The translations under genes were made by a program, and so were the position numbers. DNA of 64,000 nt from a virus. The notes beneath the pieces were generated by a model that saw nothing but the letters and a program-made list of their open reading frames with translations, had not been told where the DNA came from and did no database searches. Shown piece by piece: positions 1 through 63,691 of the stretch (position 1 is the first letter of the stretch; each line of letters opens with the position of its first letter). Where the stretch lies: positions 32,001 to 96,000 of the IMG/VR virus record IMGVR_UViG_3300045988_180769. One strand, given 5' to 3'.

Positions 1-239
1 TCAGGACGAGGTTCTTCAGCACCTTTCTTCACAGTCTTGGCATGTTCATTCACCAATTCCTCTTCCTTTGCCACATCTTCGTCAGATGCGATCATTTCAG
101 GATCAATGTAAGTTTCAATACCTGCCTCTTTCTGTTCGATCAACTTTGCAAGTTCTTCTTTTGAATACTTTGCATAATTCTGAATACCAAGTTCGTTTGC
201 CTTTTTACGAAGTTCCAATAATGATAATTTCTTTTCCAT
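1..239 (-). CDS. 5' part of a CDS that runs off the window edge; HeH/SAP-like (Rho_N-like) motif protein
   Basis: ATG at 239-237, open to position 1 (79 codons, no stop). It is absent from the ORF track because it is truncated. The translation MEKKLSLLELRKKANELGIQNYAKYSKEELAKLIEQKE fits the helix-extended-helix pattern of Rho N-terminal/SAP-like modules. A promoter-like element lies at 272-303. Confidence 0.5.
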   Translation of the reverse strand, partial: MEKKLSLLELRKKANELGIQNYAKYSKEELAKLIEQKEAGIETYIDPEMIASDEDVAKEEELVNEHAKTVKKGAEEPRP

Positions 240-271
240 AACTAAATTAATTTTAAATGTTTTGTTTTTCT

Positions 272-303
272 TTTGACTATGTAAAGATCGACCTTTATTT
301 TCA
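272..303 (-). promoter_or_regulatory. Bacteroidota-type promoter candidate (GTTG-N20-GATCTTTA)
   Basis: Minus strand reads GTTGCAACATTGAAAATAAAGGTCGATCTTTAC. This is near-identical in layout to the 33-nt element at 5342-5374 and 50127-50159. It lies in the 239-324 intergenic gap, about 33 nt upstream of the ATG at 239. Confidence 0.45.
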
Positions 304-324
304 ATGTTGCAACATGTTGTCTAT

Positions 325-906
325 TTATTTCGAAGAAAAGATGACCTCTTTTATTTTCTCAATTCTTTCTTCCACTGTACCAGTAATAACTATATGTGGA
401 ATTTTATAGTTGTTCAAAAATTGGACAATCTTTCTATCTATATCTTGTTGAAAGACTTCATCAGAAGATCTTACTCCATCATCCACAACTGGAAATTCAA
501 TAGGAAGATAAACCACAAGTTCCAACTCCTTTGCTCTCTGAAGAACTCTTTTTCTTTCTTCAAATTCTTCGAGAGAAAGATTTTGATATTCCTCCAAATC
601 TTCAGAACAATTATCAAATAAAACTGAAGTATAAGCAGCAACATCTACAATACATCTGTCACTTATAGAAGGCTGTTCAAATGTCTTATCTAACAATTTG
701 TCATACTCTTCAAAGATCTTATGTTGAGATTTTGCATTACCATTTTCATTAATGGTAACTTCTCCTTTCTTCAACATATCTCGAACCAATTCTGGATAAA
801 AAGCCCATCCTTTGAAGGATGGGTCTTTCTTTAATGCTTCGAGTAATGTTGTCTTACCAGTTCCTTGTGTTCCACAAAGATTGATTCTTTTGTTCAACGT
901 TTTCAT
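325..906 (-). CDS. P-loop ATPase/kinase, NadR-like (AAA_28-like) family
   Basis: Walker A CGTQGTGKTTLLEAL at the N-terminus. The C-terminal pattern VVYLPIEFPVVDDGVRSSDEVFQQDIDRKI...ITGTVEERIEKI resembles the NadR ribosylnicotinamide-kinase-type domain. ATGA overlap with the upstream MazG gene. Confidence 0.6.
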   Translation of the reverse strand: MKTLNKRINLCGTQGTGKTTLLEALKKDPSFKGWAFYPELVRDMLKKGEVTINENGNAKSQHKIFEEYDKLLDKTFEQPSISDRCIVDVAAYTSVLFDNCSEDLEEYQNLSLEEFEERKRVLQRAKELELVVYLPIEFPVVDDGVRSSDEVFQQDIDRKIVQFLNNYKIPHIVITGTVEERIEKIKEVIFSSK

Positions 907-1442
907 CGATTATCACCTGCTCCATGAATTACTCCTCTCTTTTTTCGAGAGGCCAATTTCTCATTGTTTTGAACAGCAACTTCTTCAATAGTCATACCCA
1001 TACTATGACAAAGACCATTCAAATACTTCCAAATGTTTTTCCAAGACTCGAGTACAATTGGTTTTCTATGTTCAGGAAAGATTGATTCTTCTCCTTCTTT
1101 CCATTCATCTCTCAACCACTTCTTTACTTGTTCAGCAATCTTTCCTACTTCGACAGGAAGTTGAAATGGATCTGGTTTCAACATTTCACTCCAATTCCAA
1201 TCTTTTTCAAGTGGAAGATCAAGTTCAACTCGAATACTTGCTAAATACCATAATTGATCGCCAATTTCTTTTGACACTTCTTCGATCTGTTTCTTTTGAG
1301 ATTGATCGTCTATCTCAATGTTGATCTTTTCATATGTTTCACCAAGTTCTCCGCTTAAACCTAATACAACATAAGGAATGGCGACTTTTTGATCATAGGC
1401 CTTTGTTGTGATGGCCTTTTCTTCATACTCTCTGTAATTCAT
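903..1442 (-). CDS. mazG: MazG-like nucleoside triphosphate pyrophosphohydrolase
   Basis: Motifs LSGELGETYEKI and EIGDQLWYLA, plus the C-terminal NNEKLASRKKRGVIHGAGDNR typical of all-alpha NTP-PPases. The track start at 1472 is a TTG that overlaps the upstream gene. The ATG at 1442 lies 7 nt after the upstream stop and is preferred. Confidence 0.8.
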   Translation of the reverse strand: MNYREYEEKAITTKAYDQKVAIPYVVLGLSGELGETYEKINIEIDDQSQKKQIEEVSKEIGDQLWYLASIRVELDLPLEKDWNWSEMLKPDPFQLPVEVGKIAEQVKKWLRDEWKEGEESIFPEHRKPIVLESWKNIWKYLNGLCHSMGMTIEEVAVQNNEKLASRKKRGVIHGAGDNR

Positions 1443-1449
1443 TTCTTTA

Positions 1450-2211
1450 TTATTTAGAACAATTGTTTGCAATTAATTTACAAAAATTAATGAAATCATC
1501 CTGTGTTAAAGTTGATTTCATAATATTTACGCTTTTATGAACCCATTGAACGTTTCCTTCGATATAACCCTTCGACGAATCAATTCTATCTAAAGATATT
1601 GTTGATTCTAAACGACCTCTTTTAGATCCTAAACTGTAATTCGATATACATAAATCAATGCCAGATAGAGCACATTTCATATTTTGCTGTTTAAGTAAGT
1701 TATCAAGATATTCGTTTGAAACATTCCATTCTAAATTTCTTGCCACAGCTCCTTCTTGAGCTCTTCTAATAACTGAAAGATTCAAATTTCCAATCTTTTT
1801 ACTTCCCTTATTTATTCTACAATTTTGACAACAAGAACTTCTTCCTCCTGTTAAAAATGTAATTCTGACATAATTTTCTTCTCCACAATCACACTTTACT
1901 CTATAAGATCTTTCTTTACTTTTGGTTAAAACCTTGAAATCCTCTTTATCAACTATAGTCCAATGTCCAAATTTCATTCCAGTTTCTACTACAGTCCAAT
2001 GTTTTGGTTTTTGCTTTTTTGCTGCAATAGTTGCTCCATATCTACATTTTAAGCATTGTTTTGAAGTTCCTGTTTTTAGATCGTAAAATCTTTTTGTTAT
2101 AACTTCTCCACATTCACATTGAACTTTAACTTGTCCTCCTGGAATTATTTCTATTATGGTCCATTTACCATACTTGTCTCCAATTTTAGGATATATTGTT
2201 TCTAACTTCAT
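1450..2211 (-). CDS. HNH-type homing endonuclease-like protein with two N-terminal Cys4 zinc-ribbon repeats
   Basis: Duplicated module G(K/H)WTI(I/V)...C(E/D)CG...(C)C..C. The C-terminus reads SLDRIDSSKGYIEGNVQWVHKSVNIMKS, as in phage HNH endonucleases. It is wedged between MazG and FolE with ATGA overlap. Confidence 0.6.
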   Translation of the reverse strand: MKLETIYPKIGDKYGKWTIIEIIPGGQVKVQCECGEVITKRFYDLKTGTSKQCLKCRYGATIAAKKQKPKHWTVVETGMKFGHWTIVDKEDFKVLTKSKERSYRVKCDCGEENYVRITFLTGGRSSCCQNCRINKGSKKIGNLNLSVIRRAQEGAVARNLEWNVSNEYLDNLLKQQNMKCALSGIDLCISNYSLGSKRGRLESTISLDRIDSSKGYIEGNVQWVHKSVNIMKSTLTQDDFINFCKLIANNCSK

Positions 2212-2840
2212 TTTTTTACATTTGAAATCATATCAAAAAATTCTTTTCTTGATCCAATTTCATTAGTTTTAAAATATCCACTACAATATGAAGTTTGCAT
2301 TGTTGAATCTTGTTCAATTCCTCTCAATTTAACGCACATATGCTCAGCTTTAATAAAAACAATTACTCCTTGATTATCTGGTAAAATTTCACAAAGATAA
2401 TCATGTATTTGTTTTGTTAAAAACTCTTGAGTTTGAGGACGTTTTGATAAAAAATCTACAATACGATTTAGTTTGGATAAACCTATAATATCACCATCTT
2501 TTTTTGGAATATAAGCTAAATGACAAATTCCAACTATACTTGCAAAATGATGAGCACATAAGCTGTGAACAGGTATATCTCCTTGAAATACAATACCATC
2601 ATATTGAGAATCATTTGGAAATACTGTGATCTTTGGAGGATTATCGTATGCTCCTGATGTAATTTCTTTTACATACATTTTTGCTACTCGAAAAGGAGTC
2701 TTCTTCATCGACTCATCATTTTCCCAATCGTATCCCAATGCTGTTAAAAACTCACCATACGCTTTTTCAGCGTCTTTTAACATCTTCTCTCTTTCTTCTT
2801 CTGACAGAATCATATTCTGTCCTGATTTAATTTTCTTCAT
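2208..2840 (-). CDS. folE: GTP cyclohydrolase I (FolE type)
   Basis: FRVAKMY, SLCAHHF (canonical CEHH with E replaced by A), GLSKLNRIVDFLSKRPQTQEFLTKQI and AEHMCVKLRG align with the E. coli FolE signature blocks. Confidence 0.9.
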   Translation of the reverse strand: MKKIKSGQNMILSEEEREKMLKDAEKAYGEFLTALGYDWENDESMKKTPFRVAKMYVKEITSGAYDNPPKITVFPNDSQYDGIVFQGDIPVHSLCAHHFASIVGICHLAYIPKKDGDIIGLSKLNRIVDFLSKRPQTQEFLTKQIHDYLCEILPDNQGVIVFIKAEHMCVKLRGIEQDSTMQTSYCSGYFKTNEIGSRKEFFDMISNVKK

Positions 2841-2843
2841 AAT

Positions 2844-3695
2844 TTATCTGTATCTTTCTGTTCCCCAAATAACAATTTGCAATCTATCTGAATAGATAAA
2901 ACCATTCTTTGCACAATATTCTGCCACCATTTTCCTATTTTGATCTAATTCTTCGTTGGTCGATCCTGATGGCATTAATATAATATTTAGTGGTTGAATA
3001 AATTCATCATCTTCCCATACAATATTAGAATTTCTATATAGAGGGACTTTCATTCGATTTCTTTTATAAACATCATAATCGATAAGATCTTTAATTTGTT
3101 GATGAATTTCTTCAAAATCATTTTTGCTACCAACAACATATTTCAATCTAAAGTCCTGAGAATATGTCAATAAGTCCCATAATGCATCTATATTCCAACG
3201 ATTTTTAGAATGATTTTTCATGACTTCTGTCATCTTCATTCCAAGTTTAGCGCATTTCTCTTCTGTAGGTTCTGATGACTTTAATTTAGGAGAAATATTA
3301 ATTAAATCAATATTTCCTATTATTTTTGGACAAGGTGCTATTGTTCCATTTGTTTCAACGATTACATTTTTATCATAGGTTTTAGCAATTTCAATAATGT
3401 CTCTAACGATTTCAGGATAAAGAAATACTTCGCCACCTGTAATAGATATATCTTTTGTCAATGGATATTTTTCAATTTCATCTATTATAGACTGGTATGT
3501 ATACTTTCCTTTTTCAGGATTAAAACTTGAATACGCTGTATCACAAATACTATTATCAAAACAGCATCTAAGATTACAACCACTTAATCGAACAAACAAA
3601 GTTGGATTCCCAGTTGTGATTCCTTCACCTTCTATCGAAGTAAATACCTCAATAATTGGTCTATATTTAGAAAGATCTATATTACTTATTTTCAT
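2844..3695 (-). CDS. queE: 7-carboxy-7-deazaguanine synthase (radical SAM, QueE)
   Basis: N-terminal FTSIEGEGITTGNPTLFVRLSGCNLRCCFDNSICDTAYS, followed by ITGGEVFLYP and VIVETNG blocks typical of QueE. Sits between FolE and QueD. Confidence 0.85.
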   Translation of the reverse strand: MKISNIDLSKYRPIIEVFTSIEGEGITTGNPTLFVRLSGCNLRCCFDNSICDTAYSSFNPEKGKYTYQSIIDEIEKYPLTKDISITGGEVFLYPEIVRDIIEIAKTYDKNVIVETNGTIAPCPKIIGNIDLINISPKLKSSEPTEEKCAKLGMKMTEVMKNHSKNRWNIDALWDLLTYSQDFRLKYVVGSKNDFEEIHQQIKDLIDYDVYKRNRMKVPLYRNSNIVWEDDEFIQPLNIILMPSGSTNEELDQNRKMVAEYCAKNGFIYSDRLQIVIWGTERYR

Positions 3696-4327
3696 ACTTG
3701 TTGATCTACTTTAGGATTTATAAACAAATCTTCATTTGGATTTTTATATGACGATTTTCCTTTCAAATACCAATTCCAGAGATCAGTTCCCCAATCTTTA
3801 GTTACTCCTGTCGAAAATTGAATAGTACCTTCTTTAGTCTCTCCATTTGTCATCACACCAAAAATATTTGGCATATCTAACAAATCTGAAACAAAACTTG
3901 TTGCACTTCCAGTTCTTGTTTCGTAATATTGTACAGAAAGAGCTGTCAATTCAGCTTCACCATTATTCGTTTGAGTGCACATAAGAATACCTTGAATTGC
4001 AGATAAAAGAAATAATGAGAGCATTTCAGCAGAAGGATTAAATGGAAGACTTATCCATCTATCACTATGCTTCATGATGAACTTAATATATTCTTCATCA
4101 TCCTGATTCCAAAACACAGTGCAGTGATCAAAAGAATCAATAAATTGCTTAATTGACCCTTTCATTAATCCAAAATCATAAATCATACCTGCATTATCTA
4201 ATTTAGAAGCAGTGAGACTTACAAGAACTTTGTAAGAATGACCATGAATAGATCTCTTACATCTTTCTGTTGAACAATTGCGCACAATGTGTGCCATTTC
4301 ACCTTCGAATTCTTTAGTAATTATCAT
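3692..4327 (-). CDS. queD: 6-carboxy-5,6,7,8-tetrahydropterin synthase (QueD/PTPS family)
   Basis: FEGEMAHIV...C...IHGHSYKV matches the PTPS/QueD Cys-His-His signature. ATGA overlap with queE. Confidence 0.8.
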   Translation of the reverse strand: MIITKEFEGEMAHIVRNCSTERCKRSIHGHSYKVLVSLTASKLDNAGMIYDFGLMKGSIKQFIDSFDHCTVFWNQDDEEYIKFIMKHSDRWISLPFNPSAEMLSLFLLSAIQGILMCTQTNNGEAELTALSVQYYETRTGSATSFVSDLLDMPNIFGVMTNGETKEGTIQFSTGVTKDWGTDLWNWYLKGKSSYKNPNEDLFINPKVDQQV

Positions 4328-4352
4328 ATCTTTTGTTTTAAATTTGATGTTC

Positions 4353-4384
4353 TAAAGATACTATAATTACTTTAAATCGTCAAT
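4353..4384 (-). promoter_or_regulatory. promoter candidate (ATTG-N20-TATCTTTA) upstream of queD
   Basis: Minus strand reads CAATTGACGATTTAAAGTAATTATAGTATCTTTAG. The -7-like box lies about 26 nt upstream of the queD ATG at 4327. Confidence 0.4.
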
Positions 4385-4849
4385 TGAAATGGTAGTTAAC
4401 ATTTTAAGTTTTACGTCAATATAAGGAACTATAAATGGAAGGCCTTTCTTTCTCACCATAATTACATTTTCATCAGGATTATTTGTTTTCACTCTATAAT
4501 CTACATCCTTCCATGTAACCATTCGTCCTTCACTAAAAAGATAGAATTTATCCCAATAAGAAACTGCTTCTTTCTTTGCAGAATATTGTAGTTTTGGAAG
4601 CCCATATTCCTGAAGAAATTTACTTCTCCAAAATATCTCGAAATTTTCATCTGAATCAAAAATTGTTTCCTTTCGATATCGTTTTGCTACATTTTGAATT
4701 TTCTCTTTCTTTTTTGCAGCAATATCGCTATTCATCTTTCTGAACTCAGGAACTTCATAGATTATTGATCTTAATTTATAACTCAAATATTCGAGTTGCA
4801 ATGTTTTTATAAATTCTTCTATCGAGAGACTTCTTGATTTTTCTTCCAT
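4367..4849 (-). CDS. hypothetical protein
   Basis: Long ORF in the gene-dense minus-strand array. The track start at 4855 is GTG. The ATG at 4849 (MEEKSRS...) sits just downstream of the promoter candidate at 4866-4896. No recognisable motifs. Confidence 0.55.
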   Translation of the reverse strand: MEEKSRSLSIEEFIKTLQLEYLSYKLRSIIYEVPEFRKMNSDIAAKKKEKIQNVAKRYRKETIFDSDENFEIFWRSKFLQEYGLPKLQYSAKKEAVSYWDKFYLFSEGRMVTWKDVDYRVKTNNPDENVIMVRKKGLPFIVPYIDVKLKMLTTISIDDLK

Positions 4850-4865
4850 GATCACTTTTTGTTTG

Positions 4866-4896
4866 TAAAGCTATACAAATTAACTTTATGAACAAA
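4866..4896 (-). promoter_or_regulatory. promoter candidate (TTTG-N19-TAGCTTTA)
   Basis: Minus strand reads TTTGTTCATAAAGTTAATTTGTATAGCTTTAC. The -33 TTTG is shared with the T-tract of the terminator at 4894-4923. Confidence 0.45.
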
Positions 4897-4923
4897 AAGA
4901 AAGGGTTACTTAATTGTAACCCT
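4894..4923 (-). terminator. Rho-independent terminator candidate after the 123-aa gene
   Basis: Perfect 8-bp stem AGGGTTAC/GTAACCCT (4902-4909 and 4916-4923) with a 6-nt loop. On the minus strand it is followed by TTCTTTTTG. It starts 5 nt after the stop codon at 4929. Confidence 0.55.
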
Positions 4924-4928
4924 AAAAC

Positions 4929-5300
4929 TCACCAATTAATTTTTACTAATCGTGCTCCCCATCCTTTTCCAGTTGCACCATTTAATCCACTTGTTCTATG
5001 TACTATTTTAAGATTCTTATTAATTCCTACTACGTGTTCATGGATAACTTGACCATAAGCACCATATCTATAAGACGCTTTTACAAACTCTCCATTTTCT
5101 TTTCTTAGAGAAGCTGAACACCATTTTTCAAGTTCTTGTGGATTGTAAAAACAAAGATGTCCTTCAATTTCAATTGATTCGTATTCATTTTCAACAGTAT
5201 AAGATTCTGTAACACTCTTCATCTTCTTTGTAGATTTTCCATTTCTCATCACTGGAACTTCTATAGTTCTAAACTTTGTATCTATAAAAATCTTCTTCAT
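4929..5300 (-). CDS. hypothetical protein
   Basis: ATG-initiated 123-aa ORF bracketed by a promoter candidate (5342-5374) and a terminator candidate (4894-4923). No recognisable motifs. Confidence 0.55.
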   Translation of the reverse strand: MKKIFIDTKFRTIEVPVMRNGKSTKKMKSVTESYTVENEYESIEIEGHLCFYNPQELEKWCSASLRKENGEFVKASYRYGAYGQVIHEHVVGINKNLKIVHRTSGLNGATGKGWGARLVKINW

Positions 5301-5341
5301 AATTTTTCTCGTTTTTAATTGTTGTCCTTTTCTTTTGATAC

Positions 5342-5374
5342 CTAAAGATACACCTTTTGGACCAATGTAGCAAC
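5342..5374 (-). promoter_or_regulatory. promoter candidate, copy A of a perfect 33-nt repeat (GTTG-N20-TATCTTTA)
   Basis: Minus strand reads GTTGCTACATTGGTCCAAAAGGTGTATCTTTAG, identical to 50127-50159. The -7-like box is about 43 nt upstream of the ATG at 5300. Confidence 0.55.
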
Positions 5375-5375
5375 A

Positions 5376-6383
5376 CTAAACAAGATTATTTGTATAAAAA
5401 TTTATAGGTTCGACCATATTATCGAGAGCTTCAAGTAATTCTTCCTGAGTAGCATCTCCTGGATCTTTTTTCTTGTCTTTTAAACATGCTATTCTTACAG
5501 TGAAATATTTCTGTAGAGTCATTGAAACACTTTTAATCGTTTCAGGTTTATCAGGATCGTACATAAGAACTACTGATTGAACACTTTTCTTCTTTCTCAG
5601 TAACCTAATTTGATCTGTTCCTATATTATTACCAAAAGTGAAAATACATTTGATTTCTTCTGTCTCATAGAGATGAAGCTTTTCATCTACTGAAATATAA
5701 TCAAACATTCCTTCTACAACAATCACTGTGTCAGTCTTGTCAGTAATTTTATCATAACCTCCTATCACCTTTGCAAAACCATCTCTTGAATTTTCATATC
5801 GAAGTATGAGTTTTGACTTTCCTTCTTTGAATTCTTGTAGATTTTTATCATGCCATTCTTTCGACTTATTTGAACGAGCCAACCACGCAACAGTCTTATC
5901 GTTCATCGTAAATTGAAAAATGAACTTATCGTGTAGCTTTTTCTCTAAAAAGAATTTTGTGATTGCAGGTTTAAATTCTTCATAGTATCTTTTATTAAAT
6001 CCTCGATCGTCAAGATATGAATCGTTTTTAAGATATTCTAATTTTCTTGGCAATTCACACTCGTCAAGTTCTAAATTCGTTTCCTCATCTTCTTTTTCAT
6101 CTACAAGAGGAGTTAGCTTTGAAACTTTTACACTATTTTCATAGTTTATTTTAGCTAAATCCATCCTTTCGATCTTAAATAGGTATCCCTTTAAGTTAGT
6201 TTTATGACCACATTTAAAACAATGAAAAACACCATCGTTTCCATGATCATTAAAATGAATAGCCCATTTTTTACCTTTGCCACAAAATGGACAAGAAGTA
6301 TCTTTATCTTGCATCCATCCAGAAGCACCAAAAGGAGTCAGATTAAGTTCTTGTATAATTTCTAATTTATCAACTCTAAACAT
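5376..6383 (-). CDS. DNA primase (zinc finger plus TOPRIM)
   Basis: Zinc-binding CPFCGKGKKW...FHCFKCGH. TOPRIM-like VIVVEGMFDYISV and VVLMYDPD. Immediately downstream of the helicase gene. Confidence 0.75.
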   Translation of the reverse strand: MFRVDKLEIIQELNLTPFGASGWMQDKDTSCPFCGKGKKWAIHFNDHGNDGVFHCFKCGHKTNLKGYLFKIERMDLAKINYENSVKVSKLTPLVDEKEDEETNLELDECELPRKLEYLKNDSYLDDRGFNKRYYEEFKPAITKFFLEKKLHDKFIFQFTMNDKTVAWLARSNKSKEWHDKNLQEFKEGKSKLILRYENSRDGFAKVIGGYDKITDKTDTVIVVEGMFDYISVDEKLHLYETEEIKCIFTFGNNIGTDQIRLLRKKKSVQSVVLMYDPDKPETIKSVSMTLQKYFTVRIACLKDKKKDPGDATQEELLEALDNMVEPINFYTNNLV

Positions 6384-6385
6384 AA

Positions 6386-7816
6386 TTAAATTCTTTCAGC
6401 CTTTTTTAACTTCGTTTCTTTTTTTTGTTTATCATCTTTCTTTTTGACTGGATGATAATTGGTAAAAAGTTCTCTTGTTCTTCCTTTATTGCAAAATCTT
6501 CCTCGATCATAATCTGTTGCAATAGGAATGATTTCTTGAGATCCTTTATAATCTCGAATCTTGTCAACATATACTCGTAAAACAGATTGCTTCAATTCTT
6601 CTCTTGTTTGATTTCCAGTTAACACAAAAGAAAATGGCTTCACTAATGTCTTGTCTCCTTCAGTATAACTTCTATCAATCACTTTATCAGAATTATCCCA
6701 TATCTCTATAGGAACGTTACTTGCCTGTGTTGCAGTAACTCCAACCATTTTAAACTCCACACAAATGTTTTTGAATAATTGAGCACTTGTTTGAAGTTTA
6801 TCTTTTTTATATGCAGGATTCGTATCAATAATTTTATTTATTCCTGTTGCTACAAGATCTAACGAGTCCATCACCAACACTTTTGGAAAGAAACCATGTA
6901 CTTTGCCATAATCAAGAACAAGGTTTCTAACATCAACCATCGTTGCTTCTCCAAACTTCTCAAAACCATATACATCAATGTCTTGACCATATTCAATCAT
7001 AGACCTATATGATTGTGTAACCTTCTTTTGATCTTCTGCTTTTAAAAATCCCTGTCGAATATCGTTAAACGATTGATTCGTCCAAAACTGATCATACTTA
7101 TCCAAACATGCCTGTACACCACCTTCTAACTGAATATGTAACACTGGATTGCCATCTAACGCTGCAGCCATAGCCTGATATCTTAATGCTGTCGACTTTC
7201 CTATTCCAGACCTCATTATCCATAGAACAGTATCTTCACAGAGAGCACCTCCATATGCGAGATCGTCTAATTGATCTATTCCAAAAGTAATCTTTATAGG
7301 TGTTTGACTTGTTTCAATATTCTCTCGTCTTTTTTTCATTCGAGTATTGAAATTTCCAAACACTTTATGAAAATTTCCTCCATCGTGTCTTAATGAAAGA
7401 GATAGTATTCTTTGACTTTCTTCAGCGTTAACTCTTATAGCTTCATCTTTTTTACCATCTTCGTATAAATCATGAACTTTCTTTGACAATAATTGAAACT
7501 CAATATCTTTTATGTATGACTCAAGTTGATCTATTATTATTTCTCTATCAACTTTTGCAGCTTTATGTATTTCATCAATCGACTCTTGTACAAAGTCATT
7601 GTCAATATATTTCTGTGAAACAACTCCTAATGATGGAACTGTTTCTTTCTTTGTGAAAATTTCAATTGCTTCTCGAAGAAGATATTTATATCCAGACCAT
7701 TCTTTTGGTATTAATTGATATGTTAAATTGCTCACAGCTATCTGTGTCAATACTGGATCGAGATAAATCAATTTAAAGAGTTCAGCCATAAAATTGGCTG
7801 ATAATTTCTGTGCCAT
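6386..7816 (-). CDS. DnaB-like replicative DNA helicase
   Basis: RecA-fold C-terminal half with Walker A MRSGIGKSTALRYQA, Walker B-like VLVMDSLDLV and TATQASN. Helicase-primase gene pairing. Confidence 0.75.
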   Translation of the reverse strand: MAQKLSANFMAELFKLIYLDPVLTQIAVSNLTYQLIPKEWSGYKYLLREAIEIFTKKETVPSLGVVSQKYIDNDFVQESIDEIHKAAKVDREIIIDQLESYIKDIEFQLLSKKVHDLYEDGKKDEAIRVNAEESQRILSLSLRHDGGNFHKVFGNFNTRMKKRRENIETSQTPIKITFGIDQLDDLAYGGALCEDTVLWIMRSGIGKSTALRYQAMAAALDGNPVLHIQLEGGVQACLDKYDQFWTNQSFNDIRQGFLKAEDQKKVTQSYRSMIEYGQDIDVYGFEKFGEATMVDVRNLVLDYGKVHGFFPKVLVMDSLDLVATGINKIIDTNPAYKKDKLQTSAQLFKNICVEFKMVGVTATQASNVPIEIWDNSDKVIDRSYTEGDKTLVKPFSFVLTGNQTREELKQSVLRVYVDKIRDYKGSQEIIPIATDYDRGRFCNKGRTRELFTNYHPVKKKDDKQKKETKLKKAERI

Positions 7817-7817
7817 A

Positions 7818-10523
7818 TTATATTAGAGTTATTCCAACTTTGACTTCTTTTTCATCTTCTCTCAAACTATTGATTGCTAAAAATGCACTCATGGTGATAT
7901 CGTCATGTCCTGAACTTGCTTCGAGTTTACCATTATCACTTTTAAATGTAATAGAAGCAAACTCTCCAAACATTATTTCCACTGCTTGTTTTGTTTCTCC
8001 AGGAGCATATGGACATTTGATCTGTCCTCTTTCAAACATTGCTGAAAGACTTGGCAATCCAGTATAAAGATCCTTTTTATTTCCTTCAGTTGTTGTAAAT
8101 GGCTCTATATTTTTTAATCCTCTTTCTTGTGCCAATCCTGATAATATGGACTGAAATCCATTCGCTTCACATATAATTTTGTTTGGTCTAAAAAGACGAT
8201 CAAGTTGAACAATCTTATCTACCTGCTCATTATGAGACATTCCTTTTTGCCTATAATAATAAAGTAAATAGAAGTTCTTCATTGCATCAATGCCCCAAAC
8301 TGAATAAACAGTATAGTCAGCACCAATATTACCAGACACAGCAAAGTCAACACCAATATGAACTCTTGTCAACTTGATTGGAAATTCATCTATTGAACTC
8401 GCAAACCTTATATTCTCCATTCCAACAATACTTCTCATAAGGTATTCATATGGAAAGATCGTTGAAGAGTCACTAATTGGAACAACTAAATATTCTCGAT
8501 TGAATACAATTGTTCCAAGTTCTTCTTTCTTTTCGAGTATCTGTGAAAAAGTAAATCTATCTGGTGCCAATGGACGTCCATTTGGAAAGACGATTGGATA
8601 TTCAAAGCAATAAAATCGTTTATCTGCTTTTAATAATTGATACAATTCATTAGGAGCTGAAGAGAATGGAGTTCCACAAATAAGAAAATATCCATAAGGT
8701 TCTACGATAGGCTCTATTGTACCTTTTAAAAGCTCTTTCATCTTTTCTCTCTGTTCATCTGAATAAAGAGATGATTCATCAGGCATGTCATCGCATAATG
8801 CAGCTCCAACATGAAGACCTCGAATAAATCCATCCTTACCACGAACATGAAGAATTGAACCAGTTTCTGTTGTGATACCAGTCTCACCAATAGACGCTTT
8901 ATTGTTTGGATTTAACTTTTCCTTAATAAGATCATTTGTTTCAATTTCTTCTCTCACTTTGGCAACTTGTACTTTCGCCAGTGTCATCGTAGAAGTGATG
9001 TAACAAGTTTCCTTTCTATTGGCATTATCTATTGTATCAGGTCTCCAAACAGTTGGTCTACAATAACTCCACAATCTCCATAATATAAAAGCATAAGACC
9101 ACTCAAAACTATTGTGAACTACTGTTCCATCTTTATGAAGATATAAATGATCACCATCAAGATAAAAACCATAGAATTTTGTTCTCTCACCTTTGGTAAC
9201 TTCAATCTTTCCTCTTCTATAGTCTTGTCTATAATGAATCTGATGAGCTCGTTTTCTCTCGACTCTTGTTGGAATTGTATGTAAATCCAATGAAATTCTT
9301 AATTCGTCTCTACTAAATCCTTTTATAGTTCGTGAGCTTAAAGAAGTTCTAAATCCTAAAGACCAGGCTAAATCTTGAACTTGTTTAATAAAACTTCCTG
9401 ATTTTAAAGTTAATTCAAAAATAGTTCCTGTTGAACTTAAATGTCCATCTGTATCAAGTATTCCTGCTAATAATTGAAGTCTCTGCTCTCGAGAACCTCT
9501 CATATAAATATCAGGAATATGTTTATTATTCAATACATTAAGCTCTCTAAGAACATTCAAAACTGGATTAATCTCTCCATGTTTTTGTTCAACATTGGTT
9601 AAAGAATATTCGTATTTGTTTTTTAATTTGAATAATTTCATTCCAAGTGATTCTGCATACTCTTTCCAAGCATCTATAATTTCTATATCTGCAGAAGTCA
9701 ACTTTGTACAATTACTATGTCTATCTCCTAACCAAGTTCCAAAAATATATGGATCAATAGGAAGTGATTGATCAGAAAGCTCCCAACCATTAATTCTGTA
9801 ACCATATAATCTTTTTTGTTTTGATCTTGGAAGATCATAAAAATCCTTTGCTGAAATTTCAACTATTTCTTGTCCATTCTTTCTATAATTTCCATGTCCA
9901 TATTCCATATATCCAAACTTATCTTTTTGTAGATGAAGTATGTGTCTGGAATTAACAACATAATCTAATCCATGTTTTTGCTTAATATGATAAGAATCAT
10001 CTTCACATACGTGAGTTTGTAGAACTACTCGAGGTGTCGAATCGACACCCATCACTTTATCTCCTACTTTAATATCTTCGATCTTTTTTAAAGACCCATC
10101 AAACATTACAACTTCAGTTCCAGCGATCTCTGTTTTTCCACTTGCTCTACTACACAAGTAACAGCTCCATGGAAAAAGTTGTGTTAAATTTCCCCATTCA
10201 ATATTTCTCCATCCCATTCTGAACTTTGGGAGCATTGTTGTTTTGAAATAATTGAACGATAAAATTTTAAGCGTAGAATCCATTGAAGATTTTACATTCT
10301 CAACATACTCAAGATTCTCTGAATCAAGTGATTTACCCAGATATAACGCTCTTTCTGCCTGTGTTGTCATTTCTTTTAGCATCGCATCAACATCATTATC
10401 ATATCCTTCCATGAGTTGATATAATGCTTTTCCAGGAAGAGCTTCAATTACTTTATCTATTGTATCACATAAATAATTGAGTTGTATGTTTGAAAGTAAG
10501 TCTTTTCCATCAGGTGTTAGCAT
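7818..10523 (-). CDS. terL: terminase large subunit interrupted by an intein in the P-loop
   Basis: Walker A CSRASGKT is followed by a 340-aa Hint/LAGLIDADG insert. After the insert come terminase blocks: LHVGAALCDDMPDES (Walker B region), ICGTPFSS (coupling motif), and the nuclease blocks IGVDFAVSG, ICEANGFQ and GHDDITMSAFLA. Confidence 0.85.
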   Translation of the reverse strand: MLTPDGKDLLSNIQLNYLCDTIDKVIEALPGKALYQLMEGYDNDVDAMLKEMTTQAERALYLGKSLDSENLEYVENVKSSMDSTLKILSFNYFKTTMLPKFRMGWRNIEWGNLTQLFPWSCYLCSRASGKTEIAGTEVVMFDGSLKKIEDIKVGDKVMGVDSTPRVVLQTHVCEDDSYHIKQKHGLDYVVNSRHILHLQKDKFGYMEYGHGNYRKNGQEIVEISAKDFYDLPRSKQKRLYGYRINGWELSDQSLPIDPYIFGTWLGDRHSNCTKLTSADIEIIDAWKEYAESLGMKLFKLKNKYEYSLTNVEQKHGEINPVLNVLRELNVLNNKHIPDIYMRGSREQRLQLLAGILDTDGHLSSTGTIFELTLKSGSFIKQVQDLAWSLGFRTSLSSRTIKGFSRDELRISLDLHTIPTRVERKRAHQIHYRQDYRRGKIEVTKGERTKFYGFYLDGDHLYLHKDGTVVHNSFEWSYAFILWRLWSYCRPTVWRPDTIDNANRKETCYITSTMTLAKVQVAKVREEIETNDLIKEKLNPNNKASIGETGITTETGSILHVRGKDGFIRGLHVGAALCDDMPDESSLYSDEQREKMKELLKGTIEPIVEPYGYFLICGTPFSSAPNELYQLLKADKRFYCFEYPIVFPNGRPLAPDRFTFSQILEKKEELGTIVFNREYLVVPISDSSTIFPYEYLMRSIVGMENIRFASSIDEFPIKLTRVHIGVDFAVSGNIGADYTVYSVWGIDAMKNFYLLYYYRQKGMSHNEQVDKIVQLDRLFRPNKIICEANGFQSILSGLAQERGLKNIEPFTTTEGNKKDLYTGLPSLSAMFERGQIKCPYAPGETKQAVEIMFGEFASITFKSDNGKLEASSGHDDITMSAFLAINSLREDEKEVKVGITLI
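9111..10133 (-). mobile_element. intein with LAGLIDADG homing-endonuclease domain inside terL
   Basis: Block A-like (T)EIAGTEVVMFDGSLKKIEDIKVGDKV. Block B VVNSRHILHL. LAGLIDADG motifs YIFGTWLGDRHS and LLAGILDTDGHLS. Blocks F/G KFYGFYLDGDHLYLHKDGTVVHN followed by +1 Ser. The N-terminal boundary is ambiguous (Thr131 or Glu132). Confidence 0.8.
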
Positions 10524-11188
10524 AATTGAAAACTTTCTCTGTATCGAACAGTTTTTTCATTCATTAATTCACTTTGTCCTTCTCCTCTCAATTTCTTGAT
10601 GTATGATATTAGAAGTTCAGCATTCGCATCAACATCATTCTGTGCTCTATGAGCATCAACGAGATCGACACCTGCCAATTGACAACAAGTTCCCAACTTG
10701 TAATCCATTTGCTCTAACGCTGAAAGATGAGCTATATGCATTGTATCAAGATAAAACTTCACATACCTATCAATATCATCTCCCATAAATTTAAAGAAGT
10801 TTTTGAGGAAAGCATTATCAAAACTAACAATATTGTGACCAGCTAAAGTGCACATTTGTCTTGGATTTTTGTACTTTGTAAACCAATCTCTACATGTTTT
10901 AAAAATCTCTTTCAATGGAACTGAATTCTCATCTTGTGTTTCTTTTGTTATTCCATGTACTTCTAATGCCTGTTGAGAATAAATTAGACCTTCTTTATAT
11001 CCATAAGGAAAAATCATATCAACTCGATCGATAATCTCTAATTTTCTCAGATCAATACAAGACATTGCTATTTCAACACATGGTGAATTTTCGAATGCAA
11101 TAATATCTTTAGTACAAAGATTTCCTGTTTCAAAATCGTAAACGATTACATAATTACAACTACTCTTCATATACTTTATTATTTTCAT
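10517..11188 (-). CDS. DEDDh 3'-5' exonuclease (DnaQ/epsilon-like)
   Basis: ExoI VIVYDFETGN, ExoII LAGHNIVSFDNAFL and ExoIII HRAQNDVDANAELL. An alternative ATG at 11170 is possible. Confidence 0.8.
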   Translation of the reverse strand: MKIIKYMKSSCNYVIVYDFETGNLCTKDIIAFENSPCVEIAMSCIDLRKLEIIDRVDMIFPYGYKEGLIYSQQALEVHGITKETQDENSVPLKEIFKTCRDWFTKYKNPRQMCTLAGHNIVSFDNAFLKNFFKFMGDDIDRYVKFYLDTMHIAHLSALEQMDYKLGTCCQLAGVDLVDAHRAQNDVDANAELLISYIKKLRGEGQSELMNEKTVRYRESFQLC

Positions 11189-12798: not shown

Positions 12799-13356
12799 TC
12801 AATCCCACGAAATTTTAAGATTAAGTTTCTCTTCCTGATCATGAACAATAGGTTTGTATCTTGATTCTGTTGTCAAGTCTCTTTCTGCAACAGTATTGTA
12901 TTCCAAAAGAGCTTTCTCTTTATCAACAGATCTTGATATCCATAAACCAATCATTTGATTTGGCTCCATATTTCCAATTGTTACTTTTTGATCAATTGTC
13001 GCTTCATACAATTCAGTCTCAAAAGGTTTACTGTAAGAATCATCTACACTTTCCATATACTGTTCATCTCCACTTTGTGTCAGTAATGTTGCTCCTATCA
13101 TAAAAGTACAGACATTTGTTTCTGGCGATTCAAACCACAACTCAACATTTTCAGCTACTTTCTCAGAATTATTCTGTAAAATTATTGCTCTGTATTGTGT
13201 CTTTGCATCTTTAATTTCTGACAAACTCAATTCATCAAACAAGTTTCCATTAACATCATTGGGAACACGAGTTGAAGATGGAAATCCACCCAAAGAATTG
13301 ATATAATTCGTTTGAGGTTGTAAATATCCTGAACTTACTGTATAATATAATTTCAT
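12799..13356 (-). CDS. hypothetical protein (possible tail-fibre accessory, by position only)
   Basis: ATG-initiated 185-aa ORF directly downstream of the fibre genes. No motif recognised. Confidence 0.5.
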   Translation of the reverse strand: MKLYYTVSSGYLQPQTNYINSLGGFPSSTRVPNDVNGNLFDELSLSEIKDAKTQYRAIILQNNSEKVAENVELWFESPETNVCTFMIGATLLTQSGDEQYMESVDDSYSKPFETELYEATIDQKVTIGNMEPNQMIGLWISRSVDKEKALLEYNTVAERDLTTESRYKPIVHDQEEKLNLKISWD

Positions 13357-13359
13357 CTC

Positions 13360-14193
13360 TTAATTTGATTTTGGAAAATTAGCCAAAGACCAATATTCTG
13401 ATTTAACTGTATTGTCAATAGAAACGACTCCTCCATTGTTTCTCACTCTCGCAATATAGAATTCGTTTTCTGATTTTACAGGAGGTTGTTCTAATGTCAC
13501 CTCTTGTACCAAACTGAAATTGTAGTAACTATATGTATAAAGTCCTTTCAATTGCTCATCTGTGAAAACTTTTCCCAATGGAATTGTACCTAAAATAATA
13601 ACTTGAAGATTAGTTTCTGCAACAAAATCTGACGCTGATGTTAACACAAGATTTTGATTATCGATTACATTAACAATCTCATAAATACCATTATTCAAAG
13701 GTAGTGAACCATCTTCTTTGATAAATCTTATTGCAACTGGAGTTTTTCCTGATTGTCCTCTTACTTTTCCACTAAAATCAACTGTTCCAGTTACAACACC
13801 TTTTTGATTTACACTCACTAAACCATTTTCATAATTCTTCGTTGTATAACCTACTTTCAACCAATAATAGGTGCTATCAGCAGGAATTGAGAAGTTGTCA
13901 TAAATATTTGTTAAGTTCACTACTTGTCCCAAAGCATTTACTGTCATTCCTGGAAGAATTTGAACTGTTCCTCCTGTTGTTCCTTGTTGCACTTCAAATG
14001 GATTTAAATCTACAAAACCATCTTTTGTTACAAAGTCAGGATTAAACACTTTAGGATTGTTTGTTACAATACCATAAGTATAACTCGTTGCAACAAGAAT
14101 CTGTCCAAGTGGATGATTCTGTAAGAAGCTCTGTAAATTCATTACTTCTTCCTTCTCTAAGAAGGTGTTTCTATTTACATTAATCTGTGTCAT
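13360..14193 (-). CDS. hypothetical protein (possible distal fibre component, by position only)
   Basis: ATG-initiated 277-aa ORF, beta-rich by composition, immediately after the 1812-aa fibre gene. Confidence 0.5.
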   Translation of the reverse strand: MTQINVNRNTFLEKEEVMNLQSFLQNHPLGQILVATSYTYGIVTNNPKVFNPDFVTKDGFVDLNPFEVQQGTTGGTVQILPGMTVNALGQVVNLTNIYDNFSIPADSTYYWLKVGYTTKNYENGLVSVNQKGVVTGTVDFSGKVRGQSGKTPVAIRFIKEDGSLPLNNGIYEIVNVIDNQNLVLTSASDFVAETNLQVIILGTIPLGKVFTDEQLKGLYTYSYYNFSLVQEVTLEQPPVKSENEFYIARVRNNGGVVSIDNTVKSEYWSLANFPKSN

Positions 14194-14208
14194 ATATCTT
14201 TTTCTTAA

Positions 14209-17200
14209 TTAAAACCAATTTGGATACTGATCATGAAGATCTTGATATTCTGTTAAACTTGTACAATTATAATAGCAATTAGTATGAGCGATTTGACTCA
14301 TTGATGGGAAACCATCAAAAGTTAATTGGAATGCTGGATCAAACATAAATGGCATTGGTAGATCCAGATAAACTCCATATTTGTTATACAATTCACAATA
14401 TGGAGCGTTTATCAATTTCGAACAATTATAGAACAAATTGTTATAAGCCAAACAAGTTTTAAATAAGCCACTTGTTATTGTAGCATTCGAAATTGAATAT
14501 CCAAATGGATACTTATCCATATTAGTCAAGTTTATACATCCTGAAAACATTTCAACTACAGATTGAATACTATTGCTACTTGCTGGTATAATCGTTGAAC
14601 CAATTGTTCTTAGGTTTGTACAATTCTTAAAACATCCCACATAAGAAGCACATTTATCGCTAACAAAGTAATTACTTGGAATTGTCACAACGCCACTTCC
14701 TTCAAAAGTGCTTTGACATAATATAGCATCGTTGAGCTTTATATTATCAATATTCAAAAGAACTTTATTATCCATAAATGTTTGAACCCAAGAAATACTT
14801 AATGTTGCATGTACATTAAATGCATTCGAGCTTACTTGTGATAAGTTCGTACTCGCGAATGCCTGTGTAAATACAGCTGTATTTACATTTCCAATAAATG
14901 AATTAGACTGTAATGATGTTATTCCTGTACCTGCACAAAAATATGTCGCATCGCAATCACTTCCACTCATAAATGAAATTTGACATGGTGCACTTAGAGA
15001 TGTACATCTTCTAAACATTCCAATACAATTGATAATGTTTATGGCGTTTATATCAAATTGTATGCTCGTTAGAATAGAGCAATCTTGAAACATACTACCA
15101 ACAGTACATCCTTGTCCTGATGGTGAAATTTGTCCAGTTACATTTGTAATTTTTGTACCAGCAAAAGTCCTATAATAATTATCTACTCCATATCCACCAA
15201 GATAATTTGTAAGATTTATAGCTCCACTAATATTACTTCCTTCATAAGTAGAGATATAACTTGTTCCAAACGATAATTGATTCGAAGGAACACTCTTTAA
15301 TGAAGAGCAATTGAAAAAGAAGTAATCTGTACTACCAGATATCAATCCTGTTGTCCATGATGCAACTTCTGTCAATTTCGAACAATTTGCAAACGCTCTT
15401 TCTGTGAATGAAGTGGAAACCTTTGTTGTAAACCATTTAACCACTCTTCTTAATTGTGTTTGGAACGAAACTAATGGATATGGTTGGCCCCAGATCATTT
15501 GAACAGTTTGATCATTAAAATCAAAAGTGATCGTATAAGTTCCCATTGTTCCATATGTATGAGAAATTGTTCCAATTGTTTGAGATCCATCTCCCCAATT
15601 TACTCTTAAATTGCCCAATCCTGTTACAGAAGTATTCTGAATTGGTAATGATACTGGTTCGCCATTCGTAGAAGTTTGAATTTCTATTACAGCTCCATCT
15701 TCCATTGTAATATAAACAGTCTTTGAAGTTTCTGTTGGTCCTACTGTATATTGACCATTTACAGTGAAATAATATGGTGAAGTTGCACTATATCCATATA
15801 TATCACCAGCAGGTACATACCATTGAACTGTTCCTGATGTTCCAGTCACACCACTACTTATTCTATCAGTTACAGTCACACCACTAATTGGCTGACCAGC
15901 TGTGTTTCGAACATTGTATGTCACCATACATTTATTTCTTGGCATTACAACATTCACTGTAGTATCCATCTCTAAAACAGTTCCTGAACCACTTTGACTT
16001 TGATATGCATCTTTTGTCGCCTGCCATGAAAATGCTGTACCTGCTGGATAAGAACTAAAAATACAATAACCTGAACTACTTATGTAGTTTAATGTTCCAT
16101 TACATCTTATCGCTACATCAGAAAGATAATTACCTGAATCATCTCTTACCCAAAAAATAATCGAATAATATTTAGCCCCTAATTCAATAGGAAATATTGG
16201 TGTCGCCTTATTAACAGTAAAGAATGTAGTATTACTTGGATAAACTGGTAATTTACTCGCAGTACAAATCAATGAATTATCTGACATAGGAACATTATAA
16301 AATAATGCATTTCCATCAGCACCTGAAACTGAACTCGTATTATTAAAGTTTACACTCGCACCTTGAATTGCTCTTTGTGTTCCTCCATAATTCTCATAAC
16401 AAAAAATCGTAACTGTTGTAGTCTTTCTTATGAAAGTCAAATTTACAGTCATGTTATTATACACTGTAAAGTCAGATTCCAGATCTGTGAAATATGTTCC
16501 ATACTTTGCAATGTAATGATAAGTACCTGCTGCAAGTTGAACTACAACTCTACCATTGGCATCTGTTGCCACAGTAGTTTCTCCATCAATTGTTATCGAA
16601 GCACCCTCTAATGTGTTTTGTCCTTCTTTGGCAATAAAAGTCACATTATAAAGAACTGCATCTTTTTCTGTCAATCTTATAGTGTAGTTGTTTTGACCTT
16701 GTACAATGTTTAAATTTCCTGAATTAGGTTTGTAATCTGTATGTGATGCTGTCCAAGGCCAAGTACCAAGAATTAAACTCCAATTCCCTGCAATACCATT
16801 AATATTAGAATATTTTGTTTCTCCATTGATTGTAACTGCAGCATTATTTATCGCAGTGCTTGTTGCATTATCTACAACAGTAACTGTAAGAGTTCCTCTT
16901 GTTTTGGCGAGATCAACAACAATTGCGATTGACTGATTTGTCAAAACTGCTGTTCCTGTTTGAATATCGTATCCTGTTCTTGTTACTGACCAAGGATAAG
17001 CACCTGGAATCTTAGTAAATGTAACATTACCTCTACCATCTGTATTCAAAGTTTCCTCATTACTTCCTGAACCAACTACTACTGGTTGATTAACTACTGG
17101 CTGTCCATCAATTCGAACTGTAAATACGATATTATAGGTTATCAACTTCAATACAACATTCACTGTTTTATTGAAACTATTTACAATTACAACTCCTTGT

Positions 17201-54159: not shown

Positions 54160-54201
54160 AATGAAGATAATTTAATTCTGTCCTAAATATACAACTAATT
54201 T

Positions 54202-54618
54202 TTATATCTGATCACTTTTTATGCAAATATTATTCACATAAAGCGTTTTACCCTTTTTTAATTGAATGCTATAAAAGAAACGATTAACAGTTTCCATCTT
54301 CTCAATTCTATCAACAATTGCCACATCTCCATTCCTGTGTAACATTGAGTCTCCAATTGTAAGATCTTTAACTATCGTTCCATCAAGTAATTCTTGATCT
54401 CCTGAAATACGATCTATCACTCCTTCTTCATTGAAAGTGTGATAATACACATTATAAACTGCATCTCGTGGTTTCGCCAATCGTTGATTTATCAACTTGA
54501 CTTTAGAAAATGACTTTCTGTCAGTTAGGATCAAATCATTTGGTTTGATATCTTTTAAGAACTTATCACCTTCGATTGTCCTTATTTCTACAAAGTTCGA
54601 ATTAAATCCACCTTTCAT
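54202..54618 (-). CDS. free-standing degenerate Hint (mini-intein-like) domain protein, 138 aa
   Basis: Block A-like FVEIRTIEGDKFLKDIKPNDLILT. Block B-like RISGDQELL (TxxH replaced by SGDQ). TIVKDLTIGDSML. Block F/G-like FFYSIQLKKGKTLYVNNICIKS (no HN). No Cys1. Confidence 0.55.
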   Translation of the reverse strand: MKGGFNSNFVEIRTIEGDKFLKDIKPNDLILTDRKSFSKVKLINQRLAKPRDAVYNVYYHTFNEEGVIDRISGDQELLDGTIVKDLTIGDSMLHRNGDVAIVDRIEKMETVNRFFYSIQLKKGKTLYVNNICIKSDQI

Positions 54619-54620
54619 GT

Positions 54621-57345: not shown

Positions 57346-57348
57346 TTG

Positions 57349-59082: not shown

Positions 59083-59093
59083 CGCTCTTTTCT

Positions 59094-59660: not shown

Positions 59661-59669
59661 GTTAACTTG

Positions 59670-60227: not shown

Positions 60228-60239
60228 ATTCTTTATTTA

Positions 60240-61565: not shown

Positions 61566-61573
61566 GTTTATTC

Positions 61574-62590: not shown

Positions 62591-62623
62591 TTATTTTAAA
62601 TTATTGAATTCGAATTCATCGCA

Positions 62624-62655: not shown

Positions 62656-62669
62656 TTTTCTCGATAATT

Positions 62670-63665: not shown

Positions 63666-63691
63666 TTTTGTCAGCTTTTTAATATTGATTG

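Follow-up and report, generated by a model that had tools for sequence, protein, structure and literature searches.

Near its start, a 64,000-nucleotide stretch of virus DNA (positions 32,001 to 96,000 of IMG/VR record IMGVR_UViG_3300045988_180769; hereafter the window) carries a cassette of genes for FolE, QueE and QueD. By established enzymology these three enzymes convert GTP to 7-carboxy-7-deazaguanine (CDG), FolE taking the first step, from GTP to dihydroneopterin triphosphate, QueD the second and QueE the third. The cassette is probably the precursor half of a two-locus system for the modification of phage DNA with 7-deazaguanine, of the type described in phage phiST. Genes for DpdL, here fused to a nucleoside monophosphate (NMP) kinase fold, and for the short transglycosylase DpdA3 lie at a second locus on the same contig, and the two loci are present or absent together among ~50 related genomes.

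The reference system, phiST, has FolE, QueD, QueE, DpdL and DpdA3 without QueC, and its deoxyguanosine (dG) is fully replaced by 2'-deoxy-7-deazaguanosine (dDG) (Cui et al. 2023, PMC10516641). In the same work DpdL was defined as a QueD paralog with LxxxHRHxF replacing CxxxHGH and was proposed to decarboxylate CDG, a QueC-less branch leading from CDG to 7-deazaguanine, and CGPG_00065 was named DpdA3 (PMC10516641). The chemically analysed phages with FolE, QueD, QueE, DpdL and DpdA3 and no QueC, which are phiST, phi19:2 and phi13:1 only, contain dDG (PMC10516641). No paper after 2023 mentioning DpdA3 was found in our literature search.

In the pathway proposed for the gut phage, FolE, a long-form QueD and QueE would convert GTP to CDG. 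DpdL, a QueD paralog with leucine (Leu) in place of the catalytic cysteine (Cys), is predicted from the literature to decarboxylate CDG to 7-deazaguanine, and DpdA3, a short transglycosylase with the fold of tRNA-guanine transglycosylase (TGT), would place this base in phage DNA instead of guanine, after replication. By analogy with phiST, most or all guanine of the virion would then be present as dDG, which is expected to protect the DNA from restriction. The lack of QueC is accounted for in this pathway because the DpdL branch does not need it.

Two loci on one contig and the search for QueC

The window makes up 60% of a human-gut phage genome of ~105.9 kb. The exact QueE protein is present on several human-gut metagenome contigs, the longest of which, ENA ERZ917822 contig k127_104256 (106,012 bp), also carries the exact window kinase and the exact 305-amino acid (aa) fusion and 261-aa DpdA3 of the second locus. 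Window and contig coordinates differ by exactly 127 nucleotides, the k-mer of the assembler, so the contig is a circular assembly of ~105,885 bp. The remaining 42 kb of the genome were read, except for 1.98 kb at record positions ~67,190-69,170 of this contig, on stretches of ERZ917822 k127_104256 and of a second assembly, designated L197, L199 and L088, with coordinates local to each stretch. L197 is 100% identical to window 1-10906, and L088 to both window 52670-64000 and the end of L199. Together with the window these stretches amount to all but 1.98 kb of the 105.9 kb, and this is the scope of the genome-wide statements made here. Megablast of window positions 1-8000 against GenBank phages gave no match, and by this comparison the phage appears to be without a close cultured relative. 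All 54 open reading frames (ORFs) of the window are on the minus strand; GC skew is negative in 31 of its 32 2-kb bins (slightly positive only at 24001-26000), and G+C content is 30-37%. The first locus and its surroundings comprise the following genes.

325-906, minus strand: kinase-like P-loop protein (Pfam AAA_28, 1.7e-21, with a weak dNK match; phrog_2107 'thymidylate kinase', 1.9e-28)
903-1472, minus strand: MazG (Pfam MazG, 22.7 bits against a cutoff of 22; phrog_229, 9.6e-23; the gene caller favours 903-1442)
1450-2211, minus strand: HNH-type homing endonuclease (phrog_3322 endonuclease, 7e-21; phrog_374 HNH, 1e-18; without a Pfam match)
2208-2840, minus strand: FolE, GTP cyclohydrolase I (Pfam PF01227 GTP_cyclohydroI, 1.4e-49, full-length; phiST FolE, 4.8e-54)
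2844-3695, minus strand: QueE, radical-SAM CDG synthase (Pfam Radical_SAM, 2.5e-8; Fer4_12, 1.1e-6)
3692-4327, minus strand: QueD, long 'QueD2-like' 6-carboxytetrahydropterin (CPH4) synthase (Pfam PTPS, 2.6e-20; phrog_2389 QueD-like)
4367-4855, minus strand: 162-aa protein of no known family (no significant Pfam or PHROG match)
4929-5300, minus strand: 123-aa protein of no known family (no Pfam or PHROG match)
5376-6383, minus strand: primase, the first gene in transcription order of the run from 6383 down to 325

An initial annotation, drawn from the letters of the window, had placed a FolE-QueE-QueD cassette, interrupted by an HNH gene and contiguous with MazG and a P-loop kinase, at 325-4327, and all six genes were located there, on the minus strand, by Pfam, PHROG and PDB comparison, with FolE, QueE and QueD at 2208-4327. 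The gene caller puts the FolE start at 2813, which gives a protein of 201 aa. For QueE, the best phage matches are the annotated QueE proteins of Cellulophaga phiSM, phiST and Flavobacterium immuto, with 28-33% identity over 93-98% of the protein. Residues 1-201 of QueD align full-length with the CPH4 synthase of PDB entry 7v0f (1e-48), so that the C-terminal extension belongs to a known form of QueD. The protein retains the catalytic Cys and the HGH zinc motif (CKRSIHGH), across which E. coli QueD (4ntm) also aligns; it is therefore QueD and not DpdL. MazG shows the paired acidic motifs GELGE and EIGDQLWY and is 33% identical (5e-27) to CGPG_00068, the MazG within the phiST dDG cluster. MazG and the kinase or kinases probably adjust the nucleotide pool, in which MazG could serve either for dGTP clearing or for general pool sanitation. 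Upstream, the genes at 4367-4849 and 4929-5300 had been credited with promoters of their own. This was not borne out, sigma-70-like sites being at chance frequency (31 found against 28 +/- 4.9 expected); the one feature to stand out is a terminator-like hairpin at 4923-4902, after the 123-aa gene.

The second locus is found on the same contig, 22.9-25.2 kb beyond position 1 of the window and thus outside it, and consists of these genes.

L199 9747-9998: 83-aa protein of no family match, directly upstream of the DpdL-kinase gene
L199 10001-10918: 305-aa DpdL-NMP-kinase fusion, two genes upstream of DpdA3
L199 10921-11562: 213-aa homing-endonuclease-like (endonuclease-VII-like) ORF with endonuclease PHROG matches, between the fusion and DpdA3
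L199 11559-12344 (contig 81,115-81,900): DpdA3 (P0072), 261 aa, 38% identical to phiST CGPG_00065 (phrog_20335, 4e-53)
L199 12341-12760: DUF4494 gene, directly after DpdA3

The 38% identity of DpdA3 to CGPG_00065 extends over the full length (4e-61), and the gene stands 24.4 kb past window position 1. A related IMG/VR contig encodes a 265-aa protein without Pfam match that is 39% identical (2e-63) to the phiST enzyme, and the DpdA3 cluster representatives P0002 and P0003 belong to sister species at ~80% DNA identity. Sequence families are of no help in recognizing the protein, as Pfam hmmscan returned 0 families and a 44-sequence profile gave only noise against the PDB sequences; it was recognized by homology to phiST and by fold comparison. 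The AlphaFold2 model of DpdA3 has a pLDDT of 94.7 and a pTM of 0.91, and the 50 best PDB matches listed for it are all tRNA-guanine transglycosylases or the DpdA of entry 7ui4, with probability 1.00 and a query TM-score of ~0.54-0.65. TGT and DpdA carry a zinc-binding Cys3-His subdomain. These enzymes measure 340-413 aa, and DpdA3, with its 261 aa, falls short of them by 100-150 aa. Of its cysteines only C208 is invariant among 44 homologs, C131 is nearly so, and there is no CxCxxC cluster, which suggests that the protein does without this subdomain. D52, D83 and D206, the last in an S-T-D-S-C motif, are invariant in the same set and are candidate counterparts of the catalytic aspartates of TGT.

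Residues 1-112 of the fusion protein are 50% identical to phiST DpdL, CGPG_00067 (8e-33). Its signature LxxxHRHxF reads LEYPHRHLF, with L31, H35, R36, H37 and F39 nearly invariant among 29 homologs. Residues 141-286 match phiST CGPG_00066 (32% identity, 3e-16), and the structural model combines a QueD-like T-fold with an NMP-kinase fold matching UMP/CMP, adenylate, polynucleotide and thymidylate kinases. More than 100 homolog clusters show DpdL joined to such a kinase fold. The DUF4494 gene has a counterpart inside the DpdA3 cluster of immuto (gp209; L200 9436-9633), yet it is kept in relatives without DpdA3.

Homing-endonuclease-like genes thus occur inside both deazaguanine loci (HNH, 1450-2211; the 213-aa ORF). 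The HNH gene is a mobile passenger and not a pathway enzyme; at this site it recurs in one cassette-positive relative only (L012, 48% identity). The 213-aa ORF was considered as a QueC-sized enzyme and rejected, given its endonuclease PHROG matches and a paralog elsewhere in the genome (39% identical, L197 15844-16536); its insertion at this site is confined to this genome. Further mobile elements are found in other genes. The 901-aa large terminase subunit (window 7818-10523, minus strand) has an intein (Hom_end_hint, Intein_splicing, Terminase_6C), residues 135-472 matching intein-bearing terminases of unrelated phages, and SNF2 (925 aa; L199 3378-6155) and UvrD (850 aa; L199 6661-9213) carry Hint/LAGLIDADG inserts that are absent in sister genomes.

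The initial annotation had also noted that neither QueC nor DpdA was visible in the window, and the searches agree. When the remaining 43 window proteins were scanned with Pfam, neither TGT nor QueC was among the families displayed (25 of the 26 matched), phmmer with DpdA3 and DpdL of phiST and QueC and DpdA2 of phiSM gave no match in the window, and the SGGxDS motif occurs in no window ORF of at least 40 aa. Across the window, L197, L199 and L088, QueC was detected neither as a Pfam family, nor by phmmer with phiSM QueC, nor as an SGGxDS motif, and it is missing from the precomputed Pfam matches of the called genes on the contig. The suggestion that the missing genes might lie beyond the window, to be found by searching the rest of the genome, was thus right for DpdA, in the form of DpdA3, and not for QueC, which was detected nowhere in the DNA read. 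The ordinary dPreQ0 or dADG system named at the time as the contrary outcome does not apply, since QueC was not detected in the DNA read and DpdL is encoded instead.

Co-inheritance of the two loci across the phage family

The gut phage belongs to a large family with genomes of roughly 100-110 kb, among them many IMG/VR relatives of 100-108 kb; DpdA3 homologs form 67 clusters, with many complete contigs. Counting contigs in which both sites are visible, both loci are present in nine IMG/VR contigs and in this genome, and both are absent, with the flanking genes abutting, in ~40; a discordant contig, with one locus and not the other, was seen nowhere among the ~50 genomes. The cassette is inserted between the 162-aa gene and MazG, and the second module (83-aa gene, DpdL-kinase, DpdA3) between a 107-aa gene and the DUF4494 gene. 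This joint presence and absence is a functional link between the window cassette and DpdL and DpdA3. Since the 83-aa protein is gained and lost together with DpdL and DpdA3, it may belong to the module as well.

The same comparison separates the cassette from its neighbours. Genomes that lack the system still carry MazG, the kinase and the 162-aa gene, at 47-59% identity (MazG at 56-59%), and the 162-aa gene, 46-56% identical in relatives with and without the cassette, directly precedes MazG where the cassette is absent. These three are backbone genes, and the 162-aa gene marks the upstream edge of the insertion site. Most relatives lack the 123-aa gene, as do even the near-identical strains L002, L003 and L005; it is a variable accessory outside the system. 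Neither of the two genes neighbouring the cassette is therefore specific to it.

Co-inheritance is also a strong argument against a role in tRNA modification or 'auxiliary metabolism'. On such a reading the cassette would be a metabolic module supplying host queuosine/tRNA modification or folate and pterins, with no relation to phage DNA. CDG, at which the phage pathway ends without QueC, is not a tRNA substrate in the established queuosine pathway. The idea was raised for phages that have preQ0-pathway genes and lack DpdA (Hutinet et al. 2019), whereas this genome encodes both a DpdA-family enzyme and DpdL, with which the cassette is gained and lost across the ~50 genomes. We regard an auxiliary role as very improbable.

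An ordinary dPreQ0, dADG or dG+ system would require QueC to be hidden in the 1.98 kb that were not read, which is the sole place left for it on the contig. This segment sits between RecA and a 162-aa gene, where all relatives have a 666-667-aa SbcC (2.0 kb) that fits the gap in size and position. Relatives read through this region have no QueC, and DpdL itself points to the QueC-less branch, so that a concealed QueC is extremely improbable.

Cassette-negative relatives were also compared over ~32 kb for a substitute modification module. None emerged: the sole substantial gene specific to them is a 395-aa TnpB transposase, the others being of at most 126 aa. In these relatives (L066 12222-13409) the TnpB/OrfB_IS605 gene lies between 206- and 67-aa genes and SbcD, and this phage has a 257-aa gene of no known function there.

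Elsewhere in the genome, a 181-aa protein outside the window (L199 804-1349), adjoining NAD-ligase and SNF2, matches Nmad5, 'nucleotide modification associated domain 5' (28.8 bits against a cutoff of 27), and is present in relatives with and without the deazaguanine loci. The window also encodes a 583-aa protein with a NUDIX domain (52408-54159, minus strand), a protein with an ADP-ribosylglycohydrolase domain (1.7e-24), and two giant ORFs of the structural region (3766 aa at 19702-31002 and 1812 aa at 14209-19647, both on the minus strand). Carboxypeptidase-regulatory-like, PKD and macroglobulin-type domains are found somewhere among the window proteins.

Identity of the base and level of replacement

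Several points weigh against a phiST-type system that writes dDG into DNA. DpdL and DpdA3 of phiST and ACP17 made no dDG in E. coli, the decarboxylation by DpdL is putative, and the substrates discussed for DpdA3 are CDG, 7-deazaguanine (DG) and 7-amido-7-deazaguanine (ADG) (PMC10516641). The host may supply QueC, so that, judged by gene content, the base may derive from 7-cyano-7-deazaguanine (preQ0). MazG and the kinase persist in ~40 relatives without both deazaguanine loci, which makes their membership of the system uncertain. Finally, the phage is known from metagenome assemblies alone, and its genome was read directly in all but 1.98 kb.

The first of these points bear on the nature of the base. 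It could be other than dDG if DpdA3 inserted CDG itself, giving dCDG, or if a host QueC turned CDG into preQ0 or ADG for insertion, DpdL then doing something else. The putative status of the DpdL activity and the failed heterologous reconstitution leave room for this, as does the fact that the DpdA3 homologs in CP220 and immuto are associated with dADG and fdPreQ1, the family thus accepting different bases; moreover, DpdA2 inserts CDG at low efficiency in a queC mutant (PMC10516641). On the other side stand the dDG found in phiST, phi19:2 and phi13:1, which have the same gene set and no QueC, and the strict co-inheritance in this clade of a DpdL with LxxxHRHxF, DpdA3 and the cassette. Taken together, a base other than dDG seems distinctly unlikely. 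The dCDG-type base put forward in the initial annotation fits the precursor pathway, which stops at CDG, and is probably not exact, the DpdL gene predicting decarboxylation to dDG.

A different question is whether guanine is exchanged in DNA or before replication. The initial annotation had already put forward incorporation at the nucleotide level with MazG clearing dGTP. In a nucleotide-level route, MazG (in other lineages an HD hydrolase) would degrade dGTP to dGMP, thereby removing the competitor and supplying the substrate, DpdA3 would swap the base on the deoxynucleotide, the NMP-kinase domain fused to DpdL and/or the window kinase, of a family associated with DpdA3, would rebuild the triphosphate, and a PolIII-type polymerase would write 7-deazaguanine at every G. 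Such a route would explain complete replacement of G, and every DpdA3 phage analysed so far shows 100% replacement (PMC10516641). For Campylobacter phages, replacement by way of a modified dGTP had been suggested before (PMC6884629). Several features of the genes can be read in this direction: DpdL is covalently joined to an NMP-kinase fold in over 100 clusters, with adjacent separate genes in phiST and MA9V-3; the shortness of DpdA3, its one invariant Cys and the probable lack of a zinc subdomain set it apart from TGT and DpdA; the window MazG has its homolog inside the phiST cluster; and the window kinase is homologous to the 'thymidylate kinases' gp203 of immuto (2.4e-18) and gp057 of CP220 (1.3e-13).

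The neighbourhood of DpdA3 is suggestive as well, with P-loop kinases and/or an NTP phosphohydrolase nearby in five of the six lineages examined. DpdA3 is accompanied by MazG and CGPG_00066 in phiST, by a P-loop gene homologous to CGPG_00066 in MA9V-3, by hydrolase gp208, kinase gp203 and phosphoribosyltransferase gp211 in the immuto cluster, and by the HD-phosphohydrolase/P-loop fusion gp055 and kinase gp057 in CP220; in this gut phage the DpdL-fused kinase domain stands beside it, and MazG and a kinase beside the cassette. The exception is Bacillus phage BSTP12, in which no kinase or hydrolase neighbour is annotated at DpdA3. DpdA3-like genes of this kind (~1e-13) occur in 55-kb Bacillus and Weizmannia phages (BSTP12: L202 3863-4651), immediately upstream of the gene for DNA polymerase I, with QueD and FolE close by, and are variously annotated as NadR, integrase or polynucleotide kinase.

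To our knowledge, no TGT-fold enzyme acts on mononucleotides, which counts against the nucleotide-level route, as does the retention of MazG and the kinase in the relatives without both loci. The window kinase is only in part specific to DpdA3 phages: its family also turns up in 89 records of phages of Streptomyces, where the neighbouring genes are generic ones for replication and recombination, and this genus does not rank among the ten commonest in the QueE search. Cui et al. read DpdA3 as a post-replicative DNA transglycosylase, like all characterized DpdA (PMC10516641). We consider exchange at the nucleotide level unlikely and favour replacement in DNA. The replicative polymerase of the gut phage is a PolIII alpha homolog encoded shortly beyond position 1 of the window by two overlapping ORFs, one for the PHP domain (538 aa; L197 11269-12885) and one for the core (687 aa; 12872-14935), and every strain or relative seen has the same split.

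The DpdL-NMP-kinase fusion is a Rosetta-stone link that places phiST CGPG_00066 in the pathway, a protein dismissed as unrelated in 2023 (PMC10516641). With CGPG_00066 as a pathway member there would be a concrete reason why DpdL and DpdA3 alone failed in E. coli, and on the nucleotide-level reading the fusion would mark it as the component absent from the failed dDG reconstitution. The fusion also brings back the question of which substrate, DNA or nucleotides, DpdA3 works on. Chemical analyses of the phiST-type system have so far been confined to marine Cellulophaga phages; here the system is found in a large human-gut phage family, so that one abundant gut lineage may have its G wholly replaced by 7-deazaguanine. 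If true, full replacement would have consequences for the evasion of restriction and CRISPR and, in studies of viromes, for bias in sequencing and PCR and for nanopore base-calling. Sister genomes without both loci and otherwise alike offer a natural control for the cost and benefit of modification.

Comparison with known systems

One point of comparison, drawn already in the initial annotation, is the Z-genome logic of cyanophage S-2L (PurZ, MazZ, DatZ), which has in common with the gut phage a MazG-type NTP pyrophosphohydrolase beside base-biosynthesis genes. This is an analogy and not a homology of pathways: unlike S-2L, the gut phage has a transglycosylase, its MazG is kept in relatives without modification genes, and there is no sign of a nucleotide-level synthase.

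Classical DpdA1 and DpdA2 systems (Enterobacteria phage 9g, CAjan, Cellulophaga phiSM) use the same three precursor enzymes and a transglycosylase of the TGT superfamily. They need QueC or Gat-QueC, and the bases they insert derive from preQ0 and replace 0.1-30% of G, within sequence motifs (PMC10516641), whereas in the gut phage QueC was not detected and the transglycosylase is of the DpdA3 subfamily, which is associated with complete replacement. CP220 and immuto have a member of the DpdA3 family (5e-15 and 7e-12, respectively), a kinase homolog beside it and an NTP phosphohydrolase in the neighbourhood, as in the gut phage. They differ in having QueC or QueC* and downstream enzymes (QueF, DpdN) and in making other bases (Cui et al. 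2023, PMC10516641). Neither the CP220 and immuto regions examined nor the tblastn matches showed a DpdL.

The closest chemically characterized system is that of phiST. Each component of its cluster has a homolog in the gut phage genome (FolE 4.8e-54, QueE 1.4e-31, MazG 5e-27, DpdL 8e-33, CGPG_00066 3e-16, DpdA3 4e-61), with QueD in another form, described below, and both phages are without QueC. The gene order is QueD-QueE-FolE-MazG-DpdL-00066-DpdA3 in phiST and QueD-QueE-FolE-(HNH)-MazG in the window. Unlike in phiST, the genes of the system stand at two loci ~23 kb apart in the gut phage, the 305-aa protein combines DpdL with the CGPG_00066 homolog, homing endonucleases stand in both loci, and an extra AAA_28-type kinase follows MazG. 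Its QueD is of the long, 7v0f-like form, to which phiST QueD gave no phmmer match (E < 0.01) and phiSM QueD one of 1.6e-5 only. The phages also differ in setting: phiST is marine and its chemistry has been measured, whereas the host of the gut phage is a human-gut bacterium and the phage is known here from its genes alone.

A link between the two is provided by Chryseobacterium phage MA9V-3 (PV245944.1), whose 103-kb genome is of similar size and carries the cluster in unannotated form. We found no publication on its DNA in the literature searched, and in the 12.8-kb region examined there is no homolog of the window MazG or kinase. MA9V-3 has DpdL, a P-loop gene and DpdA3 (1.1e-55) in the same order as the gut phage, with FolE and QueE nearby. 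Its DpdL and P-loop protein are separate though adjacent, an intermediate state between the arrangement of phiST and the fusion of the gut phage.

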